Of a stretch of 64,000 bases of DNA, positions 24,116 through 30,592 are shown piece after piece (positions within the stretch are counted from its first letter, which is position 1; each line of letters opens with the position of its first letter). Source of the stretch: an uncultured Planctomycetia bacterium. Its GTDB lineage: Bacteria > Omnitrophota > Gorgyraeia > Pluralincolimonadales > Pluralincolimonadaceae. The stretch is from positions 132,640-196,639 of the forward strand of contig CAZYUB010000001.1 in NCBI GenBank assembly GCA_964650515.1, written 5' to 3'. The notes under the pieces are model-generated. The model was not told the DNA's origin. It made no database searches and saw only the letters and a program-made list of their open reading frames with translations. The translations under genes and the position numbers were made by a program.

Positions 24116-24133
24116 ACCGGCTATATTAGGCCT

Positions 24134-24161
24134 TGCTATTACGCGCACGGTCTGTTATAAT
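24134..24161 (+). promoter_or_regulatory. sigma70-type promoter (TTGCTA-16-TATAAT) driving the intron-containing tRNA-Met
   Basis: -10 consensus hexamer about 24 nt upstream of the tRNA 5' end. Confidence 0.55.
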
Positions 24162-24184
24162 CTAGTTCCCTAAGAAATCTACCG

Positions 24185-24477
24185 CGGGGTGGAGCAGCCT
24201 GGTAGCTCGCAAGGCTCAATGTCCTGTCAAAGAACGGGACGATGGGCTCCTCGGCCGGAAACGGCCGAAGGATAGTCTGTCAAATTCGGTGAAGCCCGAA
24301 AAGGTAATACCGAGCCAAGCCTGTCGAAAGACGGGAAGGTGTAGAGACTAAACGGCAGATCCCGGTTTTCCGGGAAAGATATAGTCCAGACTACGAACTC
24401 CCGAAAGGGAGGCGGCGAAAGCCGAAGTAGCATGCATAACCTTGAGGCCAGAGGTTCAAATCCTCTCCCCGCTACCA
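24185..24477 (+). tRNA. initiator-like tRNA-Met (anticodon CAT) gene interrupted by a group I intron; exon 1 is 24185-24216, exon 2 is 24435-24477
   Basis: Exons give acceptor CGCGGGG/CCCCGCT+A+CCA with a C1/T72 mismatch. D-arm GGAGCAGCCTGGTAGCTC is identical to E. coli tRNA-fMet. Anticodon stem CAAGG/CCTTG with loop CT|CATAA. T-loop TTCAAAT. Confidence 0.8.
24217..24434 (+). mobile_element. group I (self-splicing) intron in tRNA anticodon loop
   Basis: Contains the exact group I S element AAGATATAGTCC and the R-like AGAGACTAAAC. Terminal G precedes the 3' exon. Inserted after U33 of the anticodon loop. Confidence 0.75.
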
Positions 24478-24480
24478 ATA

Positions 24481-24513
24481 GCCCCTGCAACTTAACCGTT
24501 GCGGGGGCCTTTT
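24481..24513 (+). terminator. Rho-independent terminator after tRNA-Met
   Basis: GCCCCTGCAAC-TTAACC-GTTGCGGGGGC followed by CTTTTTG. Confidence 0.75.
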
Positions 24514-24545
24514 TGTTGATATAAAATATATAAAAAGGAGCGATA

Positions 24546-25328
24546 ATGCGCATTATCTCTGCGGCGGTAATAACGGTGATCCTGTGCACGGGTACGGCAT
24601 TCGCGGACTCGAGGGAGGACGCGTTGATAGCCGCAGCGGCGTCCGGTGACGCTAAGAAAGTGGCGTGGTACGTCGGCGAGACGGTCAACATCAACTGCCG
24701 CGGGCAGGGCGGGACTACGCCTCTCATCGAAGCGGCTAAGAACGGGCAGGAAGCCGTCGTGAAATACCTGCTTATGCATTACGCCTCCGTCAACCTCGAC
24801 GACAACAATAACGCCTCGCCGCTGATGTATGCCGCGAAGGGCGGGTATACGGCCATAACGTCCGAACTGCTTTCGGCGGGGGCCAATCCCGCCAAGCAGG
24901 ATGTAGACGGCAACACGGCATTGATATATGCCGCGGAGAACGGGCATAGCGATACCGCGAAAGCGTTGCTCGATAAAGGCGCCGACCCTAACCAGAGGAA
25001 CACCGCCACCGATACCGCGCTTACCGTCGCGATCGAAGGCAAATACAAAGATATGGCGCAGCTGCTTTTGTCGAAAGGCGCCGACCCGAACACGAAGCTT
25101 ACCGAAGGCACTTTTTACGGCAGGCACGGCGACCGCAGCGGAAACGACGGCATCACGGCCCTGATGAGGGCAGCCCAATCCGGCAGTATCGATATAGTGC
25201 AGATGCTCCTGGATAAGGGCGCCAAGGTCAATGAAGTTACCACCACGAACGAAACCGCCCTTTCGTATGCCGTCGCAGGCGGGAATAAAGAGATCGCGGA
25301 CCTGCTCAGGAGCAAGGGCGCCAAGTAG
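24546..25328 (+). CDS. secreted ankyrin-repeat protein
   Basis: Signal peptide, then about 7 ANK repeats (G.TPL..AA..G....V..LL..GA..N). Confidence 0.8.
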   Translation: MRIISAAVITVILCTGTAFADSREDALIAAAASGDAKKVAWYVGETVNINCRGQGGTTPLIEAAKNGQEAVVKYLLMHYASVNLDDNNNASPLMYAAKGGYTAITSELLSAGANPAKQDVDGNTALIYAAENGHSDTAKALLDKGADPNQRNTATDTALTVAIEGKYKDMAQLLLSKGADPNTKLTEGTFYGRHGDRSGNDGITALMRAAQSGSIDIVQMLLDKGAKVNEVTTTNETALSYAVAGGNKEIADLLRSKGAK

Positions 25329-25349
25329 CAAATACGCAATATTTTGTAT

Positions 25350-25385
25350 CAGATTTATTTTGACACCACAACCCGATTGTGGTAT
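25350..25385 (+). promoter_or_regulatory. putative pur operon promoter TTGACA-17-TATAAA with inverted repeat CCACAA..TTGTGG in the spacer
   Basis: Read directly from sequence. About 105 nt leader before purB. Confidence 0.45.
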
Positions 25386-25490
25386 AAATAATCGTAGTAT
25401 AAGCCTACATCAAACAAGTATTCCTCGTTAAAAGAAGAAAAATATGTCCCTCGGACTGTCCTTAATTGACGTTGCGTCATTGGAGGCAAG

Positions 25491-27685: not shown

Positions 27686-30592
27686 GTGCTCTGGCGCGTT
27701 GAAGTAAGCGGAAAGGACGGGGCGCAGGACCCCGGCATAAAGAAGGATATCGAGGACCTCGGAGTCAAGGGTGTTGATTCCGTCGAGGTAGTGCAGGTAT
27801 ATATCATCGAGGGTGATATAGGCCAGCAGGAGGTCAGGAGGATATCCTCTGAGCTGCTCGCGGACCCGGTGACCCAGCGTTATTCGTCCGGCCGCGGGCC
27901 GGCCAGCAGCAAAGGCCCCCTGGGAGGCATGGGCAGGTCCGCGAAACACGCCGTCGTCGAGGTCACGTATAACGCCGGCGTAATGGATCCCGTCGAGGAG
28001 AGCGTCAGGAAAGGCATCCTCGACCTCGGCATCAACGGCGTCGAGACGGTCAAGACCGCGAAGAAATACATCATCTCAGGGAAGGTCGCGGAGAAAGACC
28101 TGAAGACGATAAGCGAGAAACTCCTATTCAACAAGGTCATACAGCATGTCGTATCCGGGCGTGATTCATACACCTCAAAGAACCCACCGAAATATGAATT
28201 TGAACTGATAACGGTAAAGATGCTCGGCGCGTCCGGCAGGGAGCTCGAGAGGATAAGCAGGGAAGGCCAGCTCTTCCTAGACCTCGCCGAGATGCGGCGC
28301 ATACAGGAATATTTCACGCGGCTTGGGCGCAACCCGACCGACATAGAGCTCGAGACGCTCGCGCAGACATGGTCGGAACACTGCGCGCACAAGACGTTCC
28401 GCGGCATGGTCGACTACGAGGCGGGCGGGAAGAAACGCCGCATAAAGAACCTGCTGAAGGAGACCGTCATGAAGGCGACCGCGGAGCTTAAAAAGCCGTG
28501 GTGCGTATCGGTCTTCAAGGACAACTCGGGCGTCATACGTTTCGACGAAAAGAACAATATATGTTTTAAGGTGGAGACGCATAACCACCCGTCGGCTATA
28601 GAGCCGTACGGCGGGGCGAACACCGGCCTCGGCGGCGTCATACGCGACCCGCTCGGCACCGGCCTCGGCGCGAAACCCATACTGAACACCGATATCTTCT
28701 GTTTCGGCGAGCCGGATTACCCGTTCTCGCGCCTGCCGAAAGGCGCGCTGCACCCGAAGAGGGTCATGAAGGGCGTCGTCGCAGGCGTCAGGGATTACGG
28801 CAACAAGATGGGCATACCGACGGTGAACGGCGCGGTGCTCTTCGACAACAGGTATATCGGCAACCCGCTCGTTTACTGCGGTAACGTCGGGATAATGCCT
28901 AAGGATAAGTCGTTCAAGGAAGTAGAGAGCGGCGACCTGGCGGTCGTCGTCGGAGGCAGGACAGGCCGCGACGGCATACACGGCGCGACGTTCTCGTCGG
29001 GGGAACTTACCTCGGAATCGGAGCAGGTCTCCGCGCAGGCGGTGCAGATCGGCAACCCGATCGAAGAGAAGAAGATGGCCGACTGCATACTTAAGGCCCG
29101 GGACCTCGGGCTTTATGACGCGATAACCGATTGCGGCGCGGGCGGGCTCTCGAGCGCGGTCGGCGAGATGGGCGAGAAGACCGGCGCGGTGATCGACCTT
29201 TCGAAGGTCCCGATCAAATACGGCGGGCTTACCTATACCGAGATATGGATATCCGAGGCGCAGGAGAGGATGGTGCTCTCCGTCCCGAAAAATAAGGCGA
29301 AGAAACTGCTCGAGGTCTTCGAGGCGGAAGACGTAGAGGCGACGGTCATAGGCGAATTCACGAAGACGAAGAAACTCGAGTTGTTTTACGGCGACGAGAA
29401 GGTCTGCGACCTCGGCATGGATTTCCTGCACGGCGGGAACCCGAAAGAGGTCAGGAAGGCGAAATGGAAGGCGCCGAAATTCTCCGAGCCGAAGTTCGCG
29501 TGCCCGAAGGACCTCACGCCTTCGCTGCTGGGCCTGCTCTCGAACTGGGACATCTGCAGCAAGGAATGGATAATAAGGCAGTACGACCACGAAGTGCAGG
29601 CGGGCTCCGCCGTCAAGCCGCTTGTGGGCGTATGCAACGACGGCCCGTCCGACGCGGCGGTCGCGATACCCGTGCTCGGCTCAAAGAGGGGCGTCGTGAT
29701 CTCGAACGGAATCAACCCGCGCTACGGAGACATAGACCCGTACTGGATGGCGGCCTCGAATATCGACGAGGCGCTGAGGCAGATAACCGCCGTCGGCGGC
29801 GAGCTCAAGGAAGTCGCTATACTCGATAATTTCTGCTGGGGCGATACCGACCAGCCGCCGCAGCTCGGAAGTTTGGTCAGGGCTTCTTTCGGATGCTATG
29901 ACGCGGCGAAAGCGTTCGGCACGCCGTTCATCTCCGGCAAGGACAGCTTGCATAACGAATATATCGTCGGCAACAGGCGTGTCTCGATACCGGGCACGCT
30001 GCTCATCTCCGCGATAAGCGTGACCGAGGACGTCACGAAATGCGTGACCATGGATCTCAAGGAGGCGGGCAGCCTTATATATATCGTCGGCATGACGTTC
30101 GATGAGATGGGGGGCTCCCATTATTACGGCCTCAACGGAGCGACCGGAAATTCCGTGCCCACCGTCGACCTGAAACGCGCGCGGTCCGTAATGGAGAAGC
30201 TCAGCGCGGCGATAAGGTCAGGCCTTGTCAGCGCGTGCCACGACTGCTCCGAAGGCGGCATAGGCGTAGCCGCGGCTGAGATGGCCTTTGCCGGCGGCCT
30301 CGGTGCGGAGATATCGCTGAGCGACGTGCCTTTCAGGAACAGGTATTCCGCCCGCGGCGCGAAACGCAGCGACAATGTGCTCTTCTCGGAGTCGAACACG
30401 AGGTTCATAGCCGAGGTCTCGAAGGAGAATCGCGAGGCGTTCGAGAAGGCGATGAAGGGCGCCGTGACAGGAATGATAGGAAGGGTCATCAGCCACAAGG
30501 ATCTTGTAATATACGGGTTGGACGGCAAGGTCGCGGTAAGGTCGGATATAGACGAGCTAAAGGAGGCATGGCAGGGTCCGCTGAAATGGTGA
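27686..30592 (+). CDS. purL: phosphoribosylformylglycinamidine synthase, PurS-PurL fusion (two N-terminal PurS-like repeats + FGAM synthase II)
   Basis: N-terminal about 170 aa has two PurS-like modules. The rest is AIR-synthase-related PurL (HNHPS..EPYGGA, GKDS motifs). GTG start. Confidence 0.9.
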   Translation: MLWRVEVSGKDGAQDPGIKKDIEDLGVKGVDSVEVVQVYIIEGDIGQQEVRRISSELLADPVTQRYSSGRGPASSKGPLGGMGRSAKHAVVEVTYNAGVMDPVEESVRKGILDLGINGVETVKTAKKYIISGKVAEKDLKTISEKLLFNKVIQHVVSGRDSYTSKNPPKYEFELITVKMLGASGRELERISREGQLFLDLAEMRRIQEYFTRLGRNPTDIELETLAQTWSEHCAHKTFRGMVDYEAGGKKRRIKNLLKETVMKATAELKKPWCVSVFKDNSGVIRFDEKNNICFKVETHNHPSAIEPYGGANTGLGGVIRDPLGTGLGAKPILNTDIFCFGEPDYPFSRLPKGALHPKRVMKGVVAGVRDYGNKMGIPTVNGAVLFDNRYIGNPLVYCGNVGIMPKDKSFKEVESGDLAVVVGGRTGRDGIHGATFSSGELTSESEQVSAQAVQIGNPIEEKKMADCILKARDLGLYDAITDCGAGGLSSAVGEMGEKTGAVIDLSKVPIKYGGLTYTEIWISEAQERMVLSVPKNKAKKLLEVFEAEDVEATVIGEFTKTKKLELFYGDEKVCDLGMDFLHGGNPKEVRKAKWKAPKFSEPKFACPKDLTPSLLGLLSNWDICSKEWIIRQYDHEVQAGSAVKPLVGVCNDGPSDAAVAIPVLGSKRGVVISNGINPRYGDIDPYWMAASNIDEALRQITAVGGELKEVAILDNFCWGDTDQPPQLGSLVRASFGCYDAAKAFGTPFISGKDSLHNEYIVGNRRVSIPGTLLISAISVTEDVTKCVTMDLKEAGSLIYIVGMTFDEMGGSHYYGLNGATGNSVPTVDLKRARSVMEKLSAAIRSGLVSACHDCSEGGIGVAAAEMAFAGGLGAEISLSDVPFRNRYSARGAKRSDNVLFSESNTRFIAEVSKENREAFEKAMKGAVTGMIGRVISHKDLVIYGLDGKVAVRSDIDELKEAWQGPLKW

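Follow-up and report, generated by a model that had tools for sequence, protein, structure and literature searches.

A group I intron without an endonuclease gene in the initiator tRNA gene of an uncultivated Omnitrophota bacterium, with empty and endonuclease-bearing alleles in its relatives

In Synechocystis sp. PCC 6803, which is a cyanobacterium, the tRNA-fMet gene contains an intron of 655 nucleotides (nt) with a 150-codon open reading frame (ORF) that encodes I-Ssp6803I (PMC1995217; structure PDB 2OST), and its insertion site is 33/34 (PMC13011429). I-Ssp6803I, the homing endonuclease of this intron, is of the PD-(D/E)XK type and recognizes a 23-bp pseudo-palindrome; its close homologs have been described as generally cyanobacterial (PMC1995217, PMC3384342). 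In a survey of 4,934 complete genomes, 333 tRNA group I introns were found in 18 phyla (PMC13011429, mSystems 2026). There, 33/34 was a commonly found and previously reported site in tRNA-fMet, with IC3 introns from Bacteroidota, Desulfobacterota, Nitrospirota, and Omnitrophota (GCF_004102945.1) (PMC13011429, Table S5). tRNA-fMet introns with PD-(D/E)XK ORFs were found in two cyanobacterial genomes only, horizontal transfer was considered probably infrequent, and self-splicing was demonstrated only for other tRNA introns, those of tRNA-Asn and tRNA-Asp at position 35/36 (PMC13011429). Here we analyzed a 64-kb stretch of DNA from an uncultivated bacterium (contig CAZYUB010000001.1, positions 132,640 to 196,639; hereafter the window). 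Positions 24183-24477 of the window are very probably a Candidatus Omnitrophota tRNA-fMet(CAU) gene that is split between U33 and C34 by a 218-nt IC3 group I intron, a member of the mobile family first described in cyanobacteria and at its endonuclease-less stage.

The window intron has the same host gene and the same insertion site as the Synechocystis intron, and the family tie runs through alignments with the introns of Scytonema (L042) and Snowella (L134, endonuclease-bearing) and through the proteins of two endonuclease-bearing metagenome alleles (L174 and L180). Unlike the Synechocystis intron, it has no ORF, carries a 20-nt hairpin in the P1 loop, and resides in an Omnitrophota host. 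The anticodon stem is CAAGG/CCUUG in the window, whereas it is UCGGG/CCCGA in the compared cyanobacterial loci. ORF-less tRNA-fMet introns of Scytonema and Dermocarpa were reportedly described in 1994. Such ORF-less cyanobacterial introns, of about 240 nt, share the site, the lack of an ORF, and the core blocks with the window intron, and the one from Scytonema sp. PCC 10023 (L042, 244 nt) fits the window structure. However, a rough neighbor-joining (NJ) tree puts them in its other main clade, their P1-loop hairpin is about 42 nt vs 25 nt, and their outer P7 pair is G:C while that of the window is A:U. A small ORF-less IC3 ribozyme with peripheral GAAA tetraloops also interrupts the anticodon loop of a bacterial tRNA in Azoarcus, in tRNA-Ile(CAU). 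The two introns presumably have similar J3/4-P4 (CAAAUUCGG) and J6/7-P7 (GGUGUAGAGACUA) blocks. In Azoarcus the intron follows the anticodon on its 3' side (36/37), its host is another tRNA, and it has a 3-nt guide and another P9 region. The tRNA-Leu(UAA) intron of cyanobacteria and plastids is usually seen as anciently inherited, and the tRNA-fMet intron as sporadic. The tRNA-Leu(UAA) intron is of IC3 type and likewise in the anticodon loop, and the Rfam model containing such sequences detects the window intron, but its tRNA is different and its site is 34/35 (PMC13011429). The intron of the Omnitrophota genome GCF_004102945.1 (PMC13011429, Table S5) has the same phylum, exon 1, and site, is ORF-less and classed as IC3, and matches the window intron at 160 of 197 aligned bases. 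It differs in its length (252 nt vs 218 nt), its longer P5 and P6, its lack of a P1-loop hairpin, its exon-2 T-arm, and its lineage within the phylum.

The split gene was delimited by ARAGORN in intron mode and by reading of the sequence. Its parts are the following:

24183-24477, + strand: tRNA-fMet(CAU) gene, split by the intron
24183-24216, + strand: exon 1 (tRNA positions 1-33), with the acceptor 5' strand, the D-arm, the stem strand CAAGG, C32 and U33; its 3' end is CAAGGCT
24217-24434, + strand: group I intron of 218 nt, probably of IC3 type, without an ORF, from CAATG to GCATG, the last base being G (Rfam, ARAGORN -i)
24435-24477, + strand: exon 2, with the CAU anticodon, A37 and A38, the stem strand CCUUG, the variable loop, the T-arm, the acceptor 3' strand, A73 and an encoded CCA

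Exon 2 starts with CATAACCTTG and ends with CCCCGCTACCA, the CCA being encoded. ARAGORN -i called the gene as tRNA-Met(cat) i(35,218), and the spliced 77-mer folded into a standard cloverleaf of tRNA-Met(CAT) with the anticodon loop CUCAUAA. The original prediction, made from the sequence alone, had placed the gene at 24185-24477; its end was right, while the true start is at 24183 (CGCGGGG), 2 nt upstream. It had also described a canonical tRNA after joining of the exons, an anticodon stem CAAGG/CCTTG with the loop CU-CAUAA, and an intron inserted after U33 that ends in G immediately before CAT, and the sequence agrees with all of these. The insertion point is between U33 and C34 (junction CU|CAUAA), and at the predicted ligated junction CAAGGCU is joined to CAUAACCUUG. 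U33 (24216) and the terminal G (24434) are both conserved in the intron family.

The exact extent of the insert was given by relatives with an empty site. The tRNA gene has housekeeping genes as neighbors (phosphoglucomutase, enolase, an S1-domain protein, purB, purC, and purSL). The best matches of the enolase are 85-97% identical, and every one with a named source is from a metagenome-assembled genome (MAG) of Candidatus Omnitrophota/Omnitrophica. Therefore, the host is not cyanobacterial, in agreement with the original prediction. Using the enolase proteins, we retrieved the syntenic loci of the nearest relatives (enolase 90-97% identical, the named ones all Omnitrophota). In ten of these loci (L149-L153 and L155-L159), the same S1-domain gene and promoter motif lie upstream of a tRNA-fMet gene that is uninterrupted and lacks the intron. 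The tRNA-fMet gene is identical to the predicted 77-nt ligated product in nine of the ten (L149-L152 and L155-L159), and that of L153 is one base off. Since the intronless orthologs match the ligated exons, the insert between CT and CATAA is exactly 218 nt long. Other placements are possible on paper owing to the repeated CA, and this one was chosen because it is the only one with a U before the intron and a G at its end, in keeping with group I chemistry.

The Rfam model Intron_gpI (RF00028) matched 24216-24413 with 57.3 bits, above its gathering score of 50 (E=6.7e-12 over the 64-kb window), and this was the sole group I match in the window. The elements of the intron are as follows:

24213-24218, + strand: P1 5' strand, exon GGCU plus intron C+1 and A+2, complementary to the guide UGGGCU at 24243-24248; U33 is in a U.G pair at the 5' splice site
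24221-24240, + strand: 20-nt hairpin in the P1 loop, GUCCUGU-CAAAGA-ACGGGAC, at the place of the homing endonuclease ORF in the sister alleles
24242-24248, + strand: internal guide AUGGGCU, of which GGCU pairs with the end of exon 1 (P1) and AUG with the exon-2 CAU (P10), as read from the sequence
24249-24270, + strand: P2 hairpin with a GAAA tetraloop at 24258-24261; compensatory changes at nine of nine pairs
24276-24281, + strand: P3 5' strand UCUGUC, partner GGCAGA at 24354-24359; 99.8% of alignment cells paired, four of six pairs changed on both sides
24285-24314, + strand: P4-P5 domain, with P4 at 24285-24290/24309-24314 and P5 at 24294-24296/24303-24305
24315-24339, + strand: P6/P6a with a GAAA loop; covariation in six of six P6a pairs
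24346-24350, + strand: P7 5' strand GACUA, inside the R element AGAGACUAAAC (24343-24353), partner UAGUC at 24382-24386
24354-24359, + strand: P3 3' strand GGCAGA (family alignment)
24360-24375, + strand: P8 hairpin UCCCGG-UUUU-CCGGGA; covariation in six of six pairs
24376-24387, + strand: S element AAGAUAUAGUCC, J8/7 and the P7 3' strand UAGUC (24382-24386)
24391-24430, + strand: P9 three-way junction, with P9 CUAC/GUAG, P9a and P9b, the latter two each capped by GAAA
24434, + strand: omega-G, the terminal intron base at the 3' splice site; no variation among the aligned family members

The R element (AGAGACTAAAC, 24343-24353) and the S element (AAGATATAGTCC, 24376-24387) are thus located in a 218-nt insert as first described. 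P1-P9 could be drawn including the P3/P7 pseudoknot, with the guide pairing with the end of exon 1: U33 (24216) faces G 24245 of the guide, and the guide UG pairs with the first intron bases CA. The minimum-energy fold (-89.4 kcal/mol, z=-5.6 vs shuffles) recovered the local hairpins. The drawn structure comprises P1-P10, with a single P2 and no P7.1/7.2, which we take to fit subgroup IC3. By kinship the intron is probably of IC3 type, the homologous introns at 33/34 of tRNA-fMet being classed as IC3 (PMC13011429, Table S5).

We mapped the window structure onto 78 distinct ribozyme cores (alignment A1), with the partners slid by 1-3 columns and 500 shuffles as controls. Of 4248 cells, 96.7% were paired, compared with 30-44% with slid partners, and 39 of the 56 pairs changed on both sides across the 78 cores. 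The covariation score was 0.50 vs 0.06-0.09 in the slid controls, and none of the 500 shuffles attained the observed values. P7 was paired in 100% of its cells, its outer pair occurring as A:U, U:A, G:C, and C:G across the family, and the U49:A68 pair of the P4-P5 domain swaps with G:C (43 vs 35 sequences). The guide motif N-U-G-G-G-Y-N was present in all 78 family cores, and the first two intron bases, which always face the guide U-G, were CA in 67 members and CG in 11. The inner two P9a pairs (helix 11) aligned poorly and were paired in only 48.6% of cells. The intron core is a conserved, selected RNA structure, and the match of the sequence features is far beyond chance. Together, the covariance model match, the covarying P2-P9 core, the splice-site features, and the intronless orthologs equal to the ligated exons bear out the original prediction of an initiator gene split by an ORF-less IC3-like intron.

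The gene is flanked by the transcription signals that the original prediction had proposed, its own promoter and a terminator:

24133-24161, + strand: promoter-like site, -35 TTGCTA, 17-nt spacer, TG-extended -10 TATAAT (consensus scan, 10 of 12 matches)
24481-24518, + strand: intrinsic-terminator-like feature, a hairpin at 24481-24508 (11 pairs, 8 of them GC) followed by the T-run CTTTTTGTTG

Among the closest relatives (L149, L156, L158, and L174), intronless and endonuclease-bearing alleles alike keep both promoter hexamers, and the more distant relative L153 has TATACT as its -10. The terminator sequence of the window is unlike that of the relatives.

Transcription from its own promoter would give a precursor RNA of about 300 nt. 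The guide UGGGCU (24243-24248) would form P1 with the exon-1 GGCU and the intron CA, placing a U33.G wobble at the cleavage site, and an external guanosine in P7 would attack after U33. The guide AUG would pair with the exon-2 CAU to form P10, the terminal G (24434) would enter the G site, and ligation of the exons would restore the loop CUCAUAA in a 77-nt tRNA. The findings here leave the known picture of the mechanism of such introns unchanged. If the split gene is the only tRNA-fMet gene of this genome, all translation initiation would hinge on splicing by the ribozyme.

Several points weigh against a functional split initiator gene. We infer splicing itself from sequence conservation. P5 is only 3 bp long, and in the family register P2 contains a single C.A mismatch (core positions 9:28), for which a bulged-A alternative exists. 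The anticodon stem has two of the three initiator G:C pairs (G30:C40 and G31:C39), and 29:41 is A29:U41. Finally, default ARAGORN found no second tRNA-Met in the 64-kb window, and this view is confined to 64 kb of the genome.

The A29:U41 pair bears on the identity of the tRNA. Bacterial initiators typically carry three successive G:C pairs (29:41, 30:40, and 31:39), and some lack the first of the three. The CAU anticodon is common to three tRNA types, and the gene could thus encode an elongator tRNA-Met or a tRNA-Ile2 (with CAU modified to lysidine) instead of an initiator. Homologous genes were in fact labeled Ile2 by tFind (PMC13011429, Table S5), but the same study reassigned them to fMet via homology to intronless genes. 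Against a non-initiator, position 1:72 has no Watson-Crick pair in the ARAGORN fold, being C1xU72, which was the hallmark named in the original prediction, and the D-stem GAGC/GCUC has A11:U24; both are initiator criteria. In addition, bases 1-27 (acceptor 5' strand and D-arm) are identical to the Escherichia coli tRNA-Met genes of the four-gene cluster adjoining amiC, in agreement with the claimed identity of the D-arm to that of the E. coli initiator. We take this cluster to be the metZWV initiator cluster. A29:U41 is common to all orthologs in the clade and to other family exons with the stems CAAGG or UAAGG. Because the intronless orthologs have the same pair, it is a lineage trait and not damage. 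A non-initiator tRNA is therefore very hard to credit, and we treat the gene as an initiator gene.

Could the split gene instead be a dead copy that does not splice, with the initiator tRNA supplied by an uninterrupted gene elsewhere? A second copy could lie in the remainder of the genome, the ORF of the endonuclease is already gone, the mark of a later stage in the homing cycle, and P2 has its C.A mismatch. However, all core helices are intact, and the four differences from the endonuclease-bearing allele are in loops or give U.G. The exons are identical to those of functional-looking orthologs, and the promoter motif and terminator hairpin are present. There is no further tRNA-Met in the window, and in 10 of 10 orthologous loci the tRNA-fMet gene is at this same position. 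A dead copy is thus improbable, and a gene whose transcript would be spliced is the better account of the locus.

Default ARAGORN overlooks the split gene and reports four other tRNAs in the window. Standard annotation would report no initiator tRNA, or a spurious tRNA-Leu, for such genomes; they would appear initiator-less because default tRNA finders overlook the split gene. About 14 homologous split tRNA-fMet loci from metagenomes were labeled tRNA-Leu(caa) by ARAGORN in intron mode. This label arises because the intron starts with CAA: the first CAA of the intron was misread as the anticodon. We therefore rejected tRNA-Leu(caa) as a second host gene, since these loci are the same tRNA-fMet genes.

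We found endonuclease-bearing sister alleles in two contigs from metagenomes (L174 and L180). Their exons are identical to those of the window, the upstream gene is the same, and their introns are 614 and 613 nt long. From the guide to the intron end (about 195 nt), L174 and the window differ at four places, and the core is 98% identical. The differences are one L5 base (an indel), a P6a U-A changed to U.G, one L8 base, and one base near the 3' end. The extra ~400 nt of the L174 and L180 introns are in the P1 loop and encode a 145-aa protein from intron base 3. This protein matched I-Ssp6803I (PDB 2OST) over its whole length with E=2e-45, and Pfam PF11645 with E=5e-43. In both contigs (L174:1251-1864, - strand; L180:189-801, + strand) the ORF begins at CA|AUG, with the AAGG of the tRNA anticodon stem 6 nt upstream, and its 3' end overlaps the guide and P2. 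The L180 ORF stops at a UAA within a GUAA tetraloop of P2, and the L174 loop is GAAA, where the frame continues for 28 codons.

All 38 family introns of at least 514 nt in our set carry an I-Ssp6803I-like ORF, two of which are decayed. The ORF-related variation in intron length is wholly in the P1 loop, with L1 being 2-84 nt in ORF-less and 415-447 nt in ORF-bearing members. We found no PF11645-type endonuclease ORF in the window intron and no homolog elsewhere in the 64-kb window (best tblastn E=1.3). This absence is compatible with membership in the family, since ORF-less members are already known. The window copy would not mobilize itself; it would still split the predicted target of the endonuclease, and it might be mobilized in trans. 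Supply of the endonuclease in trans from the window was rejected, as none is encoded there. We also rejected the P1-loop insert as a remnant of the ORF: MAFFT put 12 of 15 bases of this 20-nt insert on endonuclease codons 27-31, and 894 of 2000 shuffles did equally well in an ungapped-match test.

These alleles give a clean three-state picture of the homing cycle (empty, with endonuclease, and without endonuclease) in closely related uncultivated bacteria. We infer both the direction of gain vs loss and the activity of the endonuclease. Empty and endonuclease-bearing alleles occur together in metagenomes 3300009776 (L149 and L174) and 3300029288 (L159 and L180). In 480 nt of upstream flank, the window shares 93% identity with the empty loci L155/L156 and 91% with the endonuclease-bearing L174. 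On the weak basis of this one 480-nt flank, the pattern would fit an intron that passed between diverged strains and then lost its ORF. The intron might instead be old and vertically inherited, the relatives having become intronless through repeated precise loss. Introns late in the homing cycle are expected to lack the ORF, a family member is also present in a complete Omnitrophota genome, and the family introns group partly by host phylum (Omnitrophota/Planctomycetia/Patescibacteria vs cyanobacterial/Nitrospirota). On the other hand, the presence of the intron is patchy with respect to flank similarity, the cores of the window and L174, 98% identical, are closer than their flanks, as expected for transfer between strains, and empty and endonuclease-bearing alleles share the two metagenomes. 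Old inheritance with repeated loss is thus unlikely, although it deserves more weight than a dead copy or a non-initiator tRNA, and a more recent arrival in the window genome is preferred.

The original prediction had assumed that tRNA-fMet introns are limited to a few cyanobacteria and otherwise rare in bacteria. This premise fails because introns at the same site were found across phyla and had already been surveyed (PMC13011429, Table S5). We scanned the GTDB species representatives for an initiator-type 5' half followed by a sequence other than CAT. Among the matches listed, at least 57 tRNA-fMet genes from at least 10 phyla share this split site (CT|...G|CATAA). Their hosts are Cyanobacteria, Nitrospirota, Omnitrophota, Planctomycetota, Acidobacteriota, Methylomirabilota, Patescibacteria, Actinomycetota, Desulfobacterota, a gammaproteobacterial MAG, and Vulcanimicrobiota. 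The endonuclease ORF is present in 14 of these 57 genes, and only one of the 14 is cyanobacterial. Copies bearing the endonuclease occur in at least nine non-cyanobacterial phyla. A metagenome scan with the P7 region of the window intron gave 44 further loci, nearly all of them split tRNA-fMet genes.

The core of the window intron aligned over its full length with those of Scytonema, Nostoc, and other cyanobacterial introns, with invariant blocks such as GTAGAGACT and AGTCC. In a rough NJ tree, built from the 78 cores and without support values, the grouping agreed partially with host phylum, with some discordance. A clade of Omnitrophota, Planctomycetia, and Patescibacteria stood apart from a cyanobacterial/Nitrospirota clade; Planctomycetia and Patescibacteria occurred in both main clades, and Acidobacteriota were nested among the cyanobacteria.

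The window locus is a further member of a known intron family, and the element itself is ordinary. What is new is modest: the three allelic states within one clade, and the frequent occurrence, among draft genomes, of the endonuclease in hosts other than cyanobacteria. The I-Ssp6803I-type element is far more widespread than its cyanobacterial reputation implies. Whether it is also a mobile element that cycles actively in hosts far from the cyanobacteria we consider an even question. Active cycling there would run against the view from complete genomes that endonucleases of tRNA introns are rare and horizontal transfer is infrequent (PMC13011429). If it is true, these alleles would be a natural system for tracking the homing cycle and the spread across phyla in uncultivated bacteria.

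As for a phage vector, one scan of viral sequences with the endonuclease protein gave a single relative, 32% identical, and offered no support for phages as carriers of the element. A search of viral contigs with the exon-2 pattern GCATAACC...GTTCAAATC gave 28 matches, nearly all of them tRNA 3' parts without a recognizable 5' half or intron, and this pattern was therefore not used for the genome scan. In most of these IMG/VR contigs (L001-L028), unrelated sequence lies upstream of a tRNA-fMet 3' part that starts exactly at the CATAA of the anticodon loop. Two matches (L007 and L010) were unrelated, and the others were the 3' part of a tRNA with a CAU anticodon, mostly tRNA-fMet. Judging from their layout, these 3' parts look like phage attachment sites. 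At least 120 other IMG/VR contigs (L204-L323) contain an IC3-type core GGTGTAGAGACT...ATAGTCCAGAC. ARAGORN placed the core inside a tRNA gene of ~280 nt in about 95 of these contigs; most were called tRNA-Leu(UAA), and the other raw calls were Tyr, Ser, Thr, Lys, Arg, Asn, Phe, and Met.

In seven loci, from Marinobacter and Saccharospirillum (L063, L072, L076, L098, L112, and L131) and from Catenovulum (L118), a truncated tRNA-fMet 5' half ends in GGGCT and a complete tRNA-fMet gene lies about 130 nt further on; L118 has three such 5' halves. These are not introns and look like leftover copies from tandem arrays or integrations.

The stretch between the tRNA-fMet gene and purB (window 24478-25490) varies among near-identical Omnitrophota genomes, and the divergence begins 3-4 bases past the CCA. 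In the window it contains its own terminator and the gene of an ankyrin-repeat protein (24546-25328). The relatives (L149-L159) have a flavin reductase gene and an unknown ORF, two unknown ORFs, a methyltransferase gene, or an HTH_17 gene at this place. From these comparisons, the 3' end of the tRNA-fMet gene looks like a hot spot of integration or recombination. In one further locus (L154, GCA_003141835.1), the contig end falls within a tRNA-fMet gene, and the anticodon stem and T-arm (ATTGG.../GTCCGTTCGAATCGGAC) are unlike those of the otherwise identical locus L153. The L154 end may reflect either an assembly join or, at the contig edge, a second allele. Further downstream in the window, 27686-30592 encodes a formylglycinamidine ribonucleotide (FGAM) synthase of 968 aa, in which a PurS domain is fused ahead of the PurL AIRS domains.

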